DNA of 64,000 nucleotides from a virus, in IMG/VR virus record IMGVR_UViG_3300046779_001442, positions 46,901 through 110,900 of that record; one strand, given 5' to 3'. Numbering within the stretch: position 1 is the first letter of the stretch; every line of letters begins with the position of its first letter. Position numbers and translations under genes: made by a program. Under the pieces are notes generated by a model. The model saw only the letters and a list, made by a program, of their open reading frames with translations. It made no database searches and was not told the origin of the DNA. Shown piece after piece: positions 23,997 through 37,710 of the stretch.

Positions 23997-24516
23997 GCTA
24001 ATAGAGCACCTTGATAATGTAAACAAGGTTGTAGAAAAATACCTTGCTGGTAGCGATCCAACACAGATTTCAAAAGAACTGTCTATGTCAAGACAGACTG
24101 TCGTTGGATACATTAGCGAATGGAGACAGATGGCTGCAGATAATGCAGCTATTCGTGCTCGTGCCAAAGAGGCACTAGTTGGTGCTGATACGCATTACAG
24201 CAAGCTAATTTCAAAAGCTTATGAAGTTATTGAAGAGGCCACGACTACTGCAAATCTTAGTGCAAAAACGCAGGGCATTAAACTCGTAATGGACCTAGAA
24301 AAGACACGAATTGAGATGCTACAAAAAGCTGGACTACTTGAAAATAAAGAGCTAGCAGAAGAAATGATTGAGATTGAGGAAAAGCAGGAAGCACTTATCC
24401 AAATCCTAAAAGACATCGCATCTGAATATCCAGAAATTCGTGATGAAATCATGAGAAGACTCTCTAGACTTAGTAAAGATAAAGAGACTGTAGTGATTGT
24501 GAATAATAATGTTTGA
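23986..24516 (+). CDS. HTH protein, probable terminase small subunit
   Basis: N-terminal HTH (TQISKELSMSRQTV); overlaps large terminase start. Confidence 0.6.
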   Translation: MEDKLIEHLDNVNKVVEKYLAGSDPTQISKELSMSRQTVVGYISEWRQMAADNAAIRARAKEALVGADTHYSKLISKAYEVIEEATTTANLSAKTQGIKLVMDLEKTRIEMLQKAGLLENKELAEEMIEIEEKQEALIQILKDIASEYPEIRDEIMRRLSRLSKDKETVVIVNNNV

Positions 24517-26287
24517 TGATTTCTTAGATGCACTGAAGTCCGATAACTTTGATGAGCGTCCAGTAGATGCCAAAACCTTCGTTGAAGGAGAGGACTATCT
24601 GAACCAACCACCACTATCTGATGTTCAGTACGACATTGTAGAGGCTATGAGCCAAATCTACAAACTAGAAGATCTTATTGATCTTATGGGAGAAACAGAT
24701 GGAAGAAGATACTACAAGAAATATACCAAGAACGAAGTCATTCTTCAGCTCGGAAAAGGCTCTGGAAAAGATTTTACTTCTACGGTTGCGTGTGCTTATA
24801 TTGTCTATAAGCTACTTTGCCTTAAAGATCCTGCACGTTATTTTGGTAAGCCTAGTGGCGATGCCATTGATATCATTAACGTTGCGATCAACGCACAACA
24901 GGCGAAGAACGTATTCTTTAAAGGCTTTAAAACTAAGATTGAGAAATCGTCTTGGTTTGCTGGAAAATATAACCCAAAAGCGGAATCAATTGAATTTGAT
25001 AAATCTATCACAGTATACTCAGGTCACTCAGAAAGAGAGTCGCATGAGGGTCTTAACCTTATCCTTGCAGTTCTTGACGAGATCTCTGGTTTTGCTACAG
25101 AAATTGGAACAGGAAATGATCAGGGTAAGACGGCTGACAATATCTACAAAGCGTTTCGTGCGTCTGTTGACTCACGTTTCCCAGACTTAGGTAAAGTAGC
25201 ACTTCTTTCGTTTCCACGTTTCCCTGGAGACTTCATCTCTACAAGATATGATGCAGTAATTGCAGAAAAAGAAGTAGTAACCAAGCAGCATAAATTTATT
25301 ATGAATGAAGATCTTCCAGAAGATGCAGAAGGAAACTCGCTTGAAATTTCATGGGATGAAGACACAATTGTTTCTTATAAGTATCCAGGAATGTTTGCAC
25401 TTAAGCGTCCTACCTGGGTAGTTAATCCTACTCGTAAGATTGATGACTTCAAGTTGGCATTCTTTACAGACATGGGAGATGCTATGCAACGTTTTGCTTG
25501 TGTTCCAACATACATGTCAGATGCTTTCTTTAAGCAGAGAGACAAGGTTCGTGCAGCAATGACTGTACGCAACCCACTAGATTCATTTAGAAGGTTTGAG
25601 CCTTCATTTGAACCAGATCCAGAAAAAATTTACTATGTGCATGCTGACCTTGCACAGAAGCATGATAAATGTGCTGTAGCTATTGCTCACGTTGAAAAGT
25701 GGGTAAATGTTCAGGTAGTAAAAGACTACCAACAAATTGCACCAATTGTAGTTGTAGATGCAGTAGCGTATTGGGAACCAAAAGTAGAAGGCCCAGTAGA
25801 TTTGTCTGAAGTAAAACAGTGGATACAAAACCTAAGAAGAATTGGTTTCAACATAGGGCTTGTATCTTTTGACCGCTGGCAGTCATTTGACATTCAGAAT
25901 GAGCTAAAACAGATTGGTATGAGAACTGATACTGTTTCTGTTGGTAAAAAGCATTATGAAGATATGGCTATGCTAGTATATGAAGAAAGACTTGCTATGC
26001 CAGCAGTCGAACTTTTGTTCGAAGAGCTGACAGAGCTAAAGATCACTAAGAATGGTAAGAATGTTGACCACCCACGTAAGCTGTCCAAGGACTTAGCTGA
26101 CGCTGTGTGTGGCTCTATTTTTGGTGCTATAAGTCACACACCAAGGGATCTAAACCTTGAAGTTGAGGTGCATACCTTTAGGGATAGACCTAAAACTGAA
26201 CTTGACAAGCAAAAAGATAGTGTGATACAATATAAACCTATGCCAAAAGAGGTAAAAGACTATTTGGATAGGTTCAATTTAATCTAA
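24509..26287 (+). CDS. Terminase large subunit
   Basis: GKGSGKD Walker A, AVLDE Walker B, HADLA, FDRWQ, DH...KDLADA nuclease motifs. Confidence 0.9.
   Translation: MFDDFLDALKSDNFDERPVDAKTFVEGEDYLNQPPLSDVQYDIVEAMSQIYKLEDLIDLMGETDGRRYYKKYTKNEVILQLGKGSGKDFTSTVACAYIVYKLLCLKDPARYFGKPSGDAIDIINVAINAQQAKNVFFKGFKTKIEKSSWFAGKYNPKAESIEFDKSITVYSGHSERESHEGLNLILAVLDEISGFATEIGTGNDQGKTADNIYKAFRASVDSRFPDLGKVALLSFPRFPGDFISTRYDAVIAEKEVVTKQHKFIMNEDLPEDAEGNSLEISWDEDTIVSYKYPGMFALKRPTWVVNPTRKIDDFKLAFFTDMGDAMQRFACVPTYMSDAFFKQRDKVRAAMTVRNPLDSFRRFEPSFEPDPEKIYYVHADLAQKHDKCAVAIAHVEKWVNVQVVKDYQQIAPIVVVDAVAYWEPKVEGPVDLSEVKQWIQNLRRIGFNIGLVSFDRWQSFDIQNELKQIGMRTDTVSVGKKHYEDMAMLVYEERLAMPAVELLFEELTELKITKNGKNVDHPRKLSKDLADAVCGSIFGAISHTPRDLNLEVEVHTFRDRPKTELDKQKDSVIQYKPMPKEVKDYLDRFNLI
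26202..26231 (+). promoter_or_regulatory. Promoter for 26314 gene
   Basis: TTGACA-18nt-TACAAT. Confidence 0.55.
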
Positions 26288-34492: not shown

Positions 34493-35605
34493 TTGGGTAT
34501 GAAAAAATTTGCAACTGTTTTAACAACAGCATTTTTGCTAACTGGATTCGTTAATGCGTCTGAAGCTGCTGTATTCCAGCCTTGCTCTGCAAAAAAAGTA
34601 AATGTAGTAAGCAATAATAAGATATGCAAAAAGGTTGGAATTTTTTATAGGTGGGTTAGTCTACCAACAAAAAGCAAGGCTCCAATTGCCACACCCAAGC
34701 CAAGTCCAACTATAACGGCACAGCCAATAACTGCAACAGACTATTCAGTGCTGCTGACATCATTTGACGATGTTGATAAGTATCTGTTTGTTAATGACTA
34801 CAGGCTACCAACTAATAATATAAAATTTGGTCCAAGCCTTGATCCAAAAATTGTGTCTAATGGTACTGAGGCCTTTGTCTCTATTGCAAGTGTGTTCTCT
34901 ACTTTTTATTCTCCATCATATTATTATGCAATAGTTACATCAGAAAAGGACCGTGAGTGGGCAGCATCACCATCAATCAACAAGATTGACTCTAGGTTTA
35001 CTGGACTATATGGCAATACCTGTGAAAACGGTAATAGCGGAAATGAGTGGAGTTCAATTTCATGCACCTGGTCTGATAAAACAGAGTGGTACAGAATGGA
35101 ATTGCTTGCACATGAATATACTCATAGCGTAATCTATAGCACTGGAGGAACAAAGACTGGTGCAGTTAGCAACTACCAAAGGGCATTTGACATTCCTTCT
35201 TGGCTCAATGAGGGTGCTGCAACATACTATGGATGGTGGCTAGGATCTATAAAAGATAAAAACATTTCTGCACATATAAAGGGCCACCTTAACGGATTTG
35301 CATGCAGCGTTCCAGGCTATTCAGATTTACCAAACCCAGAAAAGCTAGCATCTGAGATGAAGCAGATAGAAACTGGTGCAGGGCATTCATTTAAACAATA
35401 TGGGTACGGTGCTATTGCTGTAGCAGAATTAGTATCAAAGTATGGAGGGCACAAAGCAATGCTTGACTTCTATACACAGATGCGTTATACTAGTAATTGG
35501 AAAGATGCATTTGAAAAGTCATTTGGAGTTACTCCAGATAAGTTTTATGTTGAACAATATAAAGATTTTATTAAAATGCTTCCAGACTTGACATGTAAAC
35601 GATAA
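34493..35605 (+). CDS. Secreted zinc metallopeptidase-like protein
   Basis: Signal peptide, Pro/Thr linker, HEYTH...WLNEG gluzincin motif. Confidence 0.75.
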   Translation: MGMKKFATVLTTAFLLTGFVNASEAAVFQPCSAKKVNVVSNNKICKKVGIFYRWVSLPTKSKAPIATPKPSPTITAQPITATDYSVLLTSFDDVDKYLFVNDYRLPTNNIKFGPSLDPKIVSNGTEAFVSIASVFSTFYSPSYYYAIVTSEKDREWAASPSINKIDSRFTGLYGNTCENGNSGNEWSSISCTWSDKTEWYRMELLAHEYTHSVIYSTGGTKTGAVSNYQRAFDIPSWLNEGAATYYGWWLGSIKDKNISAHIKGHLNGFACSVPGYSDLPNPEKLASEMKQIETGAGHSFKQYGYGAIAVAELVSKYGGHKAMLDFYTQMRYTSNWKDAFEKSFGVTPDKFYVEQYKDFIKMLPDLTCKR

Positions 35606-35616
35606 CGTGTTATAAT
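35588..35616 (+). promoter_or_regulatory. Consensus promoter for tRNA array
   Basis: TTGACA-17nt-TATAAT with TG extension. Confidence 0.85.
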
Positions 35617-35633
35617 AAAATACAACTTAATAA

Positions 35634-35706
35634 TGCCCTATAGCTCAGCTGGCAGAGCGTCCGACTGTTAATCGGCAGGTCCCTGGTTCGATCCCAGGTG
35701 GGGCAG
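35634..35706 (+). tRNA. tRNA-Asn(GTT)
   Basis: Cloverleaf; anticodon loop ctGTTaa; GTTCGA T-loop. Confidence 0.92.
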
Positions 35707-35710
35707 CAAA

Positions 35711-35890
35711 CACATTAACGACGGTTGATGTGGAGTATGACCGAATAATTCCCAGAGTCAAATGGGGGGAATAAGGTACTATCGGATCTTAGCGGATCGT
35801 CTTAGCGGACAAACGGTAGGTGTGCTCAAAGCGGTACTTGACGAGCCGTATTGACTAGGCACTGGTGGTAAAATGCAATCCACCTACTCA
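35711..35890 (+). ncRNA. Candidate structured ncRNA A
   Basis: No long ORF; several stems, twin TTAGCG-loop hairpins. Confidence 0.55.
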
Positions 35891-35894
35891 CTTT

Positions 35895-35965
35895 GCGAAT
35901 GTTGCATAATGGTAGTGCCTCTGCCTTCCAAGCAGAAGGTGAGAGTTCGATTCTCTCTATTCGCT
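35895..35965 (+). tRNA. tRNA-Gly(TCC)
   Basis: Cloverleaf; loop ctTCCaa. Confidence 0.92.
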
Positions 35966-35966
35966 C

Positions 35967-36136
35967 TATAGGCTAATCACCTATACGTGTACAAGTGTAC
36001 GTAAAAATTCAACACTTGAGAATGTCCAGGCATTGGTTTAATCTGGCGTGTAGGCACCTCACGATATAGGTTCGGAGCTAGTCACTCGTCTTAGGAAACG
36101 ACTCAGGGATATAGATCTGATTAATCTGATATCCCA
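35967..36136 (+). ncRNA. Candidate structured ncRNA B
   Basis: No long ORF; several hairpins, e.g. gggatatagat-ctgatta-atctgatatccc. Confidence 0.5.
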
Positions 36137-36139
36137 CTT

Positions 36140-36213
36140 GGTCTCATAGTTCAGTTGGTTAGAACGCCACCCTGTCACGGTGGAGGTCAGGGGTTCAAGT
36201 CCCCTTGGGATCG
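36140..36213 (+). tRNA. tRNA-Asp(GTC)
   Basis: Cloverleaf; loop ctGTCac. Confidence 0.93.
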
Positions 36214-36220
36214 CTCAGAA

Positions 36221-36379
36221 GCATAAGTCTGAACAACTTATGTGGAGATTGTTATACCGAAACCTGCACTGTGGACGCATCATACGAAGGGGTTCAGCCC
36301 GATGGAGATTGCTCTGCTAACCCACTAGGTATAACAGCCAATGGCAAACTTCCTTAACCAAAAGGTGAGCACGATTGGC
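36221..36379 (+). ncRNA. Candidate structured ncRNA C
   Basis: gcataagt/acttatgt hairpin; tgttatacc/ggtataaca closing stem; gccaat/attggc stem. Confidence 0.55.
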
Positions 36380-36383
36380 AAAT

Positions 36384-36457
36384 GCTTCCTTAGCTCAGTT
36401 GGCCAGAGCAATCGCCTTGTAAGCGATAGGTCGTCAGTTCGAACCTGACAGGGAGCT
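36384..36457 (+). tRNA. tRNA-Thr(TGT)
   Basis: Cloverleaf; loop ctTGTaa. Confidence 0.93.
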
Positions 36458-36461
36458 CGAT

Positions 36462-36533
36462 GGCCCCATCGTCTATCGGTTAGGACTCCAGATTTTCAAT
36501 CTGGCAAGACGGGTTCGATTCCCGTTGGGGCTA
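36462..36533 (+). tRNA. tRNA-Glu(TTC)
   Basis: Cloverleaf; loop ttTTCaa. Confidence 0.92.
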
Positions 36534-36565
36534 CTATAGCATAAAAAGTATGCTATACTATAACT

Positions 36566-36661
36566 ATGGAGCTAACTATGAAGTATTCAAACCAGCAATC
36601 GCATGTGCGATTTAGTCTGGCGTACTCTTGGCATTTAGCCAGTCTCCAGCCGAGTATCTAA
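36566..36661 (+). CDS. Putative leaderless 31-aa leader peptide
   Basis: TGCTATACT + 6 nt + ATG; MELTMKYSNQQSHVRFSLAYSWHLASLQPSI. Confidence 0.45.
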   Translation: MELTMKYSNQQSHVRFSLAYSWHLASLQPSI

Positions 36662-36748
36662 TCTAACTCGCTTAAACAAATAGATTATCTAATAAAAATC
36701 CAAACAATCACAATTTAATACAATACCAAACAGTTAGTTCCATAACAT

Positions 36749-36822
36749 ATCGTATTGGTGTAGTGGTAGCACAACAGCTTCCAAACCTGTTGGCGTGGGT
36801 TCGATTCCTACATACTTTGCCA
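36749..36822 (+). tRNA. tRNA-Trp(CCA), atypical
   Basis: Cloverleaf with loop ttCCAaa and encoded CCA; two acceptor-stem mismatches and C31:C39. Confidence 0.75.
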
Positions 36823-36895
36823 CCTGATATAGCTCAATTGGTAGAGCGTCTGTTTGAAGCACAGAAGGTTCTTGGTTCGATTCCAAGTGTTAGGA
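36823..36895 (+). tRNA. tRNA-Phe(GAA)
   Basis: Cloverleaf; loop ttGAAgc. Confidence 0.88.
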
Positions 36896-36896
36896 C

Positions 36897-36925
36897 TTGA
36901 CAACTAAATATAGAAAAGATATAAT
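36897..36925 (+). promoter_or_regulatory. Internal consensus promoter in tRNA array
   Basis: TTGACA-17nt-TATAAT; tRNA-Met starts after 6 nt. Confidence 0.85.
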
Positions 36926-37620: not shown

Positions 37621-37710
37621 GGAAGGACAATCCGATTGGCGACGGAACCTGTCTTGAAAACAGTTGAGGTGTTAAAGCCCTTGGGAGTTCGACTCTCCCT
37701 CCTTCCGCCA
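37621..37710 (+). tRNA. tRNA-Ser(TGA)
   Basis: Loop ctTGAaa; long variable arm; GCCA end. Confidence 0.92.

Follow-up and report, generated by a model that had tools for sequence, protein, structure and literature searches.

A compact manA RNA packed between two tRNA genes of an actinophage-like virus

The spacer between tRNA-Asn and tRNA-Gly in the tRNA array of an uncultivated virus holds a full-length manA RNA (RF01745) of a compact subtype. The element has the orientation of the tRNAs, starts 5 nt past tRNA-Asn, and ends 0 nt before tRNA-Gly, and manA RNAs packed against tRNAs recur in unrelated phages. On balance, we favor the view that the RNA is cut from the tRNA precursor as a free molecule of ~188 nt that acts in trans and may form closed homo-oligomers. 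The DNA analyzed here, referred to as the window, is a 64,000-nt stretch of a viral genome (positions 46,901 to 110,900 of IMG/VR record IMGVR_UViG_3300046779_001442), and coordinates refer to it unless a contig is named.

The spacer element is a manA RNA

Scanning with Rfam 15 identified positions 35713-35894 of the plus strand as manA RNA, at 65.8 bits over the full length of the model (1-192/192; E = 5e-17), where the gathering score of the family is 55.2 bits; the whole window was scanned at the gathering threshold and the interval was then scanned alone. A first-pass annotation had described the element as a novel noncoding RNA that matches no known RNA, and the claim of novelty falls because the full-length match exceeds the gathering score. 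What stands of that description is its narrower part: the interval gave no covariance-model match (E up to 1) to tmRNA, RNase P, SRP, or known ribozymes, nor to GOLLD or ROOL, and the scan of the interval alone with the same limit returned no Rfam family besides manA. There is exactly one manA copy in the entire 110.9-kb virus record, and our own covariance model, R1 (see below), likewise finds one copy in the window. In the remainder of the tRNA array, the Rfam scan returned tRNA-type matches and chance subthreshold matches only.

All three unpaired core motifs of the family, UGACYGAAUAA, UAAGGU, and the GGUA...AAUCC signature of the 3' hairpin, are present in the window copy (Table 1), and their columns are invariant in both the compact and the classical subtype. 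The covariance score, this conserved core, a multi-helix architecture with compensatory changes, and the pseudoknot all mark the element as a member of the family. The window copy differs from the family in its setting, since Rfam types manA as "Cis-reg," for placement in 5' UTRs before protein-coding genes, whereas the window copy is flanked by tRNA-Asn and tRNA-Gly and no ORF follows it. It also differs in its carrier, an actinophage-like virus as opposed to a T4-like cyanophage or a gamma-proteobacterium. Placement in a 5' UTR is typical of manA, not defining, and the seed alignment itself includes tRNA-flanked copies.

Shorter peripheral arms account for the lower score of the window copy, 66 bits compared with 170-180 bits for cyanophage copies. 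Reduced arms of this kind, together with two UUAGCG hexaloops, are common to the window copy, its relatives, the copy in Rhodococcus phage Francesca, and a copy on viral contig L132. This compact subtype is already present in the seed alignment of Weinberg et al. (2010), as JCVI_SCAF_1101668133563, and the same alignment has a copy with tRNAs on both sides, BABC01000017. Neither the subtype nor the tRNA-flanked setting is therefore new; both have been on record since 2010.

Fold and covariation

The interval folds with a minimum free energy (MFE) of -59.6 kcal/mol (z = -3.03), a value equaled by 0 of 200 shuffles, and the MFE and centroid structures coincide and agree with the Rfam architecture in nearly every helix (Table 1). 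Rfam-derived pairs were projected onto an alignment of the window copy, two relatives, and the Francesca copy (A3), which gave covariance model R1, and covariation was counted in A4, an alignment of 29 diverse elements that was guided by the model. In A4, 36 of the 42 base pairs change on both sides, and standard pairs occupy 95.5% of cells, compared with 64% in shuffled alignments and 38-47% with partners slid by 1-3 columns; because A4 was fitted to the structure of the model, these pairing figures are inflated for all helices save the pseudoknot. Two cross-subtype alignments made with MAFFT (A1 and A2) placed the peripheral arms in structurally wrong positions and were excluded from the pair counts. 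When run on viral contigs, R1 picks up the canonical manA RNAs of cyanophages with E values of 1e-16 to 1e-7; it had never been shown the classical form, and the compact and classical forms are therefore homologous.

The pseudoknot is absent from R1, and in A4 three of its five pairs are compensatory and 90.9% of its cells pair. Its strands read GUCAA/UUGAC in the window, GUUAG/CUAAC in Francesca, and GGCAU/AUGCC in canonical copies, a form of covariation that does not separate an intramolecular from an intermolecular contact. The pairing of AGUCAA with UUGACU had been put forward as a possible pseudoknot in the first-pass annotation, and it was right, since it covaries independently of R1. 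It probably corresponds to the contact labeled "pseudoknot?" in Fig. 2 of Weinberg et al. (2010), between a hairpin loop and the 3' side of the long arm.

Most of the helices proposed earlier also hold. The cacattaac-GACG-gttgatgtg hairpin is present and covaries, as does the 3' ggtgg/ccacc hairpin, which stacks straight onto the outer stem, and the two adjacent TTAGCG-loop hairpins are where they were proposed. The gagta/tactc closure turns out to be the outer stem of the family, with five of five pairs changing on both sides. The attccc/gggaat hairpin exists, but the ccga/tcgg closure that had been drawn around it is unsupported: the family consensus pairs AC 35740-41 with GU 35776-77 and places tcgg in the junction stem. 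An alternative gtaggtg/cacctac closure clashes with two covarying helices and is likewise unsupported. Within the molecule, we found no convincing partners complementary to the twin UUAGCG loops and no convincing self-complementary kissing loops, and relatives do not keep the UGCA of the 3' loop.

Table 1. Elements of the manA locus and their positions in the window
Feature	Position	Strand	Remarks
Sigma-70-type promoter, TTGACA-17-TATAAT with TG extended -10	35588..35616	+	12/12 matches; would drive first tRNA unit
tRNA-Asn(GUU)	35634..35707	+	Acceptor stem ends at 35705; discriminator G35706; CCA not encoded
manA RNA (RF01745), compact subtype	35713..35894	+	Predicted released RNA ~35707-35894 (~188 nt)
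5' hairpin, GACG loop (family consensus GAcg)	35711..35732	+	Helix 1; 6/6 pairs change on both sides
Outer closing stem, 5' strand GAGUA	35733..35737	+	Pairs with UACUC 35885-35889; helix 2, 5/5 covary, 97% paired
Single-stranded conserved core UGACCGAAUAA (consensus UGACYGAAUAA)	35738..35748	+	Invariant columns; partner motif UAAGGU 35772-35777
Hairpin with pseudoknot loop GUCAA (35757-35761)	35749..35771	+	Loop pairs with UUGAC 35851-35855; helices 4 and 5
Junction stem 35780-84/35814-18 around two tandem hairpins	35780..35818	+	Helix 6; 5/5 pairs covary
Tandem UUAGCG-hexaloop hairpins	35785-35798, 35799-35810	+	Both loops kept in Francesca and L132
Long arm	35822..35862	+	Outer helix 35822-28/35856-62; inner hairpin 35832-37/35848-53; helices 7 and 8
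3' hairpin GGUGG-UAAAAUGCAAU-CCACC (signature GGUA...AAUCC)	35864..35884	+	Helix 9; 100% paired, 3/5 covary
Single-stranded tail ACUUU, the 5' leader of tRNA-Gly	35890..35894	+	Predicted RNase P site at 3' end
tRNA-Gly(UCC)	35895..35966	+	Starts 0 nt past manA match

The tRNA array and its carrier

ARAGORN places 22 tRNA genes on the plus strand between positions 35634 and 38098. The spacer that contains manA had been singled out for its length and its GC content, and both observations are borne out: its GC fraction is 0.465 compared with 0.394 for the whole window, and the gap between the two tRNAs measures 187 nt, not the 180 nt given at first, where the later tRNA spacers are, as had also been noted, mostly 0-6 nt. 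CCA is not encoded in 17 of 24 tRNAs, tRNA-Asn included. The promoter ahead of the array lies ~17 nt upstream of tRNA-Asn (Table 1), and a second perfect TTGACA-17-TATAAT promoter, at 36897-36925 just upstream of tRNA-Met, divides the array into two transcription units, the first with 7 tRNAs and 4 long spacers and the second with 15 tightly packed tRNAs. No terminator-like site was found between the two promoters (35617-36896), no ORF of at least 60 amino acids overlaps the interval on either strand, and neither a mobility gene nor a target-site duplication was seen next to manA.

The other long spacers of the first unit were considered as possible diverged manA copies, and this was rejected, as neither R1 nor Rfam gave a match at 35967-36139, 36215-36383, or 36535-36748. 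The last of these, a 214-nt spacer between tRNA-Glu and tRNA-Trp with no Rfam match, folds at -50.6 kcal/mol (z = -5.97 versus shuffles) into a structure that is closed by a long-range stem of 13 bp and includes a 5' hairpin of 9 bp; its identity to the relative L124 is 99.5%. The folds of the other two are unremarkable (z = -1.4 and -1.3, respectively). Spacer C (36215-36383) is 95-96% conserved in L124, L125, and L131, and spacer B (35967-36139) and tRNA-Gly are found, among the relatives, in the window and L126 only. The tRNA at 37621-37706 is called tRNA-Sec by Rfam (47.8 bits; gathering score, 47) and tRNA-Ser(UGA) with a long variable arm by ARAGORN, and the tRNA-Sec label is probably an artifact.

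The window has genes for a family-A-type DNA polymerase, a DnaB-like helicase, a UvsX-like recombinase, and a class Ia ribonucleotide reductase. Its terminase (24509-26287) has ~55% identity with the terminases of tRNA-rich Streptomyces phages of ~128 kb (Stanwilliamsviridae) and matches those of Gordonia and Rhodococcus phages more weakly. The carrier is an uncultivated phage with a genome of 111 kb; it resembles large actinophages and is not a T4-like cyanophage. Streptomyces and its phages have GC contents far above the 0.394 of the window, and a different, lower-GC host is therefore probable despite the Streptomyces-phage-like terminase. manA is missing from Streptomyces phages Francob, Gilson, and Coruscant, the isolated phages that terminase comparison places nearest to the window phage. 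Inheritance of manA with the phage lineage does not agree with its absence from these three phages, and its occurrence is accordingly sporadic.

Conservation and tRNA exchange among relatives

Five viral contigs (L069, L124, L125, L126, and L131) are relatives of the window phage. Identity among them reaches 96-99% for manA and 100% for tRNA-Asn; for the neighboring protein gene upstream it is ~69% in L069. As judged from these identities, manA is under strong purifying selection. Two genomes have tRNA-Gly downstream of manA and three have tRNA-Asp, with the point of exchange placed exactly at the 5' end of the tRNA. Because the downstream tRNA swaps precisely at this boundary, manA behaves as a discrete module.

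Recurrence of manA beside tRNAs

A search of isolated phages by blastn with the manA interval returned Francesca only. In this Rhodococcus phage, a 72.9-bit manA lies between tRNA-Met and tRNA-Lys, with gaps of 3-4 nt and 1 nt. In a viral contig present as L071 and L096, a manA-like RNA lies between tRNA-Gly and tRNA-Pro (51.8 bits, slightly below the Rfam cut-off; E = 8e-14), and in contig L073 another lies immediately past tRNA-Thr. The association extends to canonical cyanophage copies of 170-180 bits, which abut a downstream tRNA in L033, L118, L077, L051, and L008 and have a tRNA directly upstream in L013 and L089. A first scan that did not depend on the window lineage gave 68 confirmed elements, of which 8 lay within 30 nt of a same-strand tRNA, compared with 0.75 for random placement within the same loci (at most 4 in any of 2000 trials). 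In that scan of 68 elements, no tRNA on the opposite strand lay within 300 nt of manA. In the sample as a whole, adjacent tRNAs were on the strand of manA in 14 of 14 cases.

About 85% of sampled manA elements are not beside tRNAs. Terminator-like sites occur upstream of 28 of 64 elements and within 110 nt downstream of 12 of 67, and a Shine-Dalgarno sequence with a start codon lies within 60 nt in 11 of 67. For copies away from tRNAs, these data do not contradict a cis-regulatory reading as 5'-UTR leaders. The converse generalization, that every manA is a separate RNA with a 3' terminus of its own, is not supported, given that downstream terminator-like sites are so few and most cyanophage copies are leader-like.

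Carriers of manA include cyanophages, actinophage-like phages, and the Bifidobacterium megaplasmid pMP7017. No match was obtained by blastn against plasmids with either the window interval or the Francesca copy. A subtype-specific pattern gave 22 matches in 185,579 bacterial and archaeal genomes; none had any further hallmark of the element, and all were set aside as due to chance.

Several further elements were noted in the course of these searches. Three manA-like RNAs that score below the gathering threshold (L096 6321-6494, equivalent to L071 501-674; L073 1999-2223; and L079 3886-4092) carry the GACG-loop hairpin, the UGACYGAAUAA...UAAGGU core, and the GGUA...AAUCC hairpin, and two of the three are in tRNA arrays. 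Because such copies score below gathering, Rfam-based annotation undercounts tRNA-embedded variants. AT-rich elements at L123 9016-9174, L128 2970-3122, and L130 1048-1200 have a GAAUAAUUCC...AUAAGG core and one UUAGCG loop, and match R1 weakly (E = 0.01-0.04). There is no tRNA in their vicinity, and either a further divergent relative or a chance resemblance may account for them. On the minus strand of L132 (4839-5016) is an independent compact member with twin UUAGCG loops and no tRNA nearby; it is followed directly by an AAGGAGG Shine-Dalgarno sequence and ATG, and the compact subtype therefore occurs in a leader position too. In L077, a cyanophage-type contig, canonical manA sits 2 nt upstream of tRNA-Asn, and a glutamine riboswitch aptamer (RF01739, 38 bits; 2333-2381) is found ~400 nt upstream of this manA.

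Release from the tRNA precursor and alternative readings

The favored route to a free manA RNA can be set out step by step. The promoter upstream of tRNA-Asn would drive transcription of a polycistronic precursor, Asn-manA-Gly and onward, in which manA is the second element. The established specificity of RNase P is the basis for a predicted cut at the 5' end of tRNA-Gly, which would make the 3' end of manA. Because CCA is not encoded, the 3' end of tRNA-Asn needs an RNase Z-type cut or trimming, and such processing past its discriminator would make the 5' end of manA. By the established rules of tRNA processing, the two events together would leave the ~188-nt RNA of Table 1. Excision as a free RNA is the most likely outcome because there is no expression platform, terminator, or ORF and tRNAs touch the element on both sides. 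The earlier proposal of a structured RNA released by tRNA processing keeps its fold, which covariation supports, and fits this context, with release as the step that the processing rules predict; the word "novel" is what has been refuted.

Once excised, the RNA, with its multi-helix junction, pseudoknot, and twin UUAGCG loops, would work in trans by means of its tertiary structure. Homology with the family members examined by cryo-electron microscopy (cryo-EM) suggests that it may also assemble into closed homo-oligomers. There is precedent for the first part of this scheme in phage T4, whose stable RNAs species 1 and 2 (rnaC and rnaD) are small RNAs in the T4 tRNA cluster that are cotranscribed with the phage tRNAs and freed by host tRNA-processing enzymes; these RNAs are not known to be members of the manA family or to oligomerize. 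For the second part, a recent preprint reports that manA RNAs self-assemble in vitro into RNA-only cages of 8, 10, and 60 chains, built of pentamers joined by kissing loops (bioRxiv 10.64898/2026.07.01.735769). Those cages were seen with other family members at high RNA and Mg2+ concentrations, and the preprint does not mention tRNA.

GOLLD and ROOL offer an analogy. These phage and prophage nanocage RNAs form closed RNA-only homo-oligomers and commonly lie close to tRNA islands (PMC12286853). Like manA, they are phage encoded, linked to tRNA islands, and self-assembling (manA in vitro), and the likeness goes no further than analogy: they are unrelated to manA in sequence and fold and are 3-5 times longer, and their cages consist of 8 or 14 long chains, whereas those of manA are 8-, 10-, or 60-mers of chains of <200 nt. 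A bolder extension, which we regard as unlikely, is that manA is a third unrelated self-assembling phage RNA class tied to tRNA islands, after GOLLD and ROOL, made from the tRNA precursor in fixed proportion and acting as a closed oligomer on tRNA or translation biology during infection. The oligomer might, for example, sequester or protect tRNAs or a host factor or counter tRNA-directed host defense, and the covarying "pseudoknot" could then be an intermolecular contact between protomers.

The manA motif was proposed in 2010 by Weinberg et al. as a riboswitch candidate, on the strength of its complex conserved architecture and its positions in 5' UTRs (PMC2864571). Classical riboswitches such as the glutamine riboswitch (glnA RNA, RF01739) of cyanophages resemble manA in having complex, conserved, pseudoknotted folds and in being borne by phages, and most manA copies, like these riboswitches, occupy leader positions. 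The window copy departs from them in having neither an expression platform nor a downstream coding gene. A classical riboswitch working through an expression platform is structurally excluded for the window copy because its anatomy leaves 0 nt before tRNA-Gly, with no terminator and no ORF. A related reading is that manA serves as a cis-acting sensor within the tRNA precursor, binding a metabolite or factor and altering the processing of the adjacent tRNA or the extent of transcription. In its favor, the ACUUU tail doubles as the RNase P leader of tRNA-Gly, and the five canonical copies that abut a downstream tRNA have only that one tRNA after them and nothing ahead of them, a leader-like arrangement. 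Against it, the 0-1 nt to the next tRNA leave no space for an expression platform, and there is neither a terminator nor a ribosome-binding site; moreover, any of several tRNAs (Gly, Asp, Lys, Pro, or Asn) can occupy the downstream position, the MFE and centroid structures show no alternative pairing that overlaps the tRNA, and after 16 years the literature that we located names no ligand for manA. We judge this sensor decidedly improbable.

Still less credible is the suggestion that manA is a horizontally mobile, self-contained RNA module that brings the phage little or no benefit and is tolerated in tRNA islands through clean excision. The sporadic distribution of manA, present in the window lineage and Francesca and missing from the three terminase-related Streptomyces phages, would suit such a module, as would its spread over dissimilar carriers and the exchange of its neighbors exactly at tRNA boundaries. 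However, its unpaired core nucleotides and loops are strongly conserved in very distant carriers, its identity within the lineage far exceeds the 69% of adjacent coding DNA, and the element has neither of the hallmarks of mobility that we looked for beside it. Finally, a DNA-level element (for instance, one used in replication or recombination) or a very small protein-coding gene, with no functional RNA, might explain why the region is GC-richer than its surroundings and has inverted repeats that could serve as DNA cruciforms, but it is effectively refuted because the many covarying G-U pairs (for instance, UG in 10 sequences at columns 46/90) are possible only in the RNA of this strand, and the full-length match to an RNA covariance model, the shared strand of all adjacent tRNAs, and the lack of an ORF of at least 60 amino acids on either strand likewise oppose it.

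Conclusions

A routine Rfam scan is enough to name the element, which has no discovery value as a new RNA. Its value lies in the locus, a clean natural test case in which tRNAs abut manA on both sides and no expression platform is possible. The window copy weakens, for at least part of the manA family, a riboswitch label that is now 16 years old. Release as a free RNA, the reading that we favor, would fit the 2026 report of self-assembling manA particles, and manA would then join GOLLD and ROOL as cage-forming RNAs in phage tRNA islands. The same arrangement is shared by a culturable carrier, Rhodococcus phage Francesca, which makes the biology of tRNA-embedded manA RNAs experimentally approachable.
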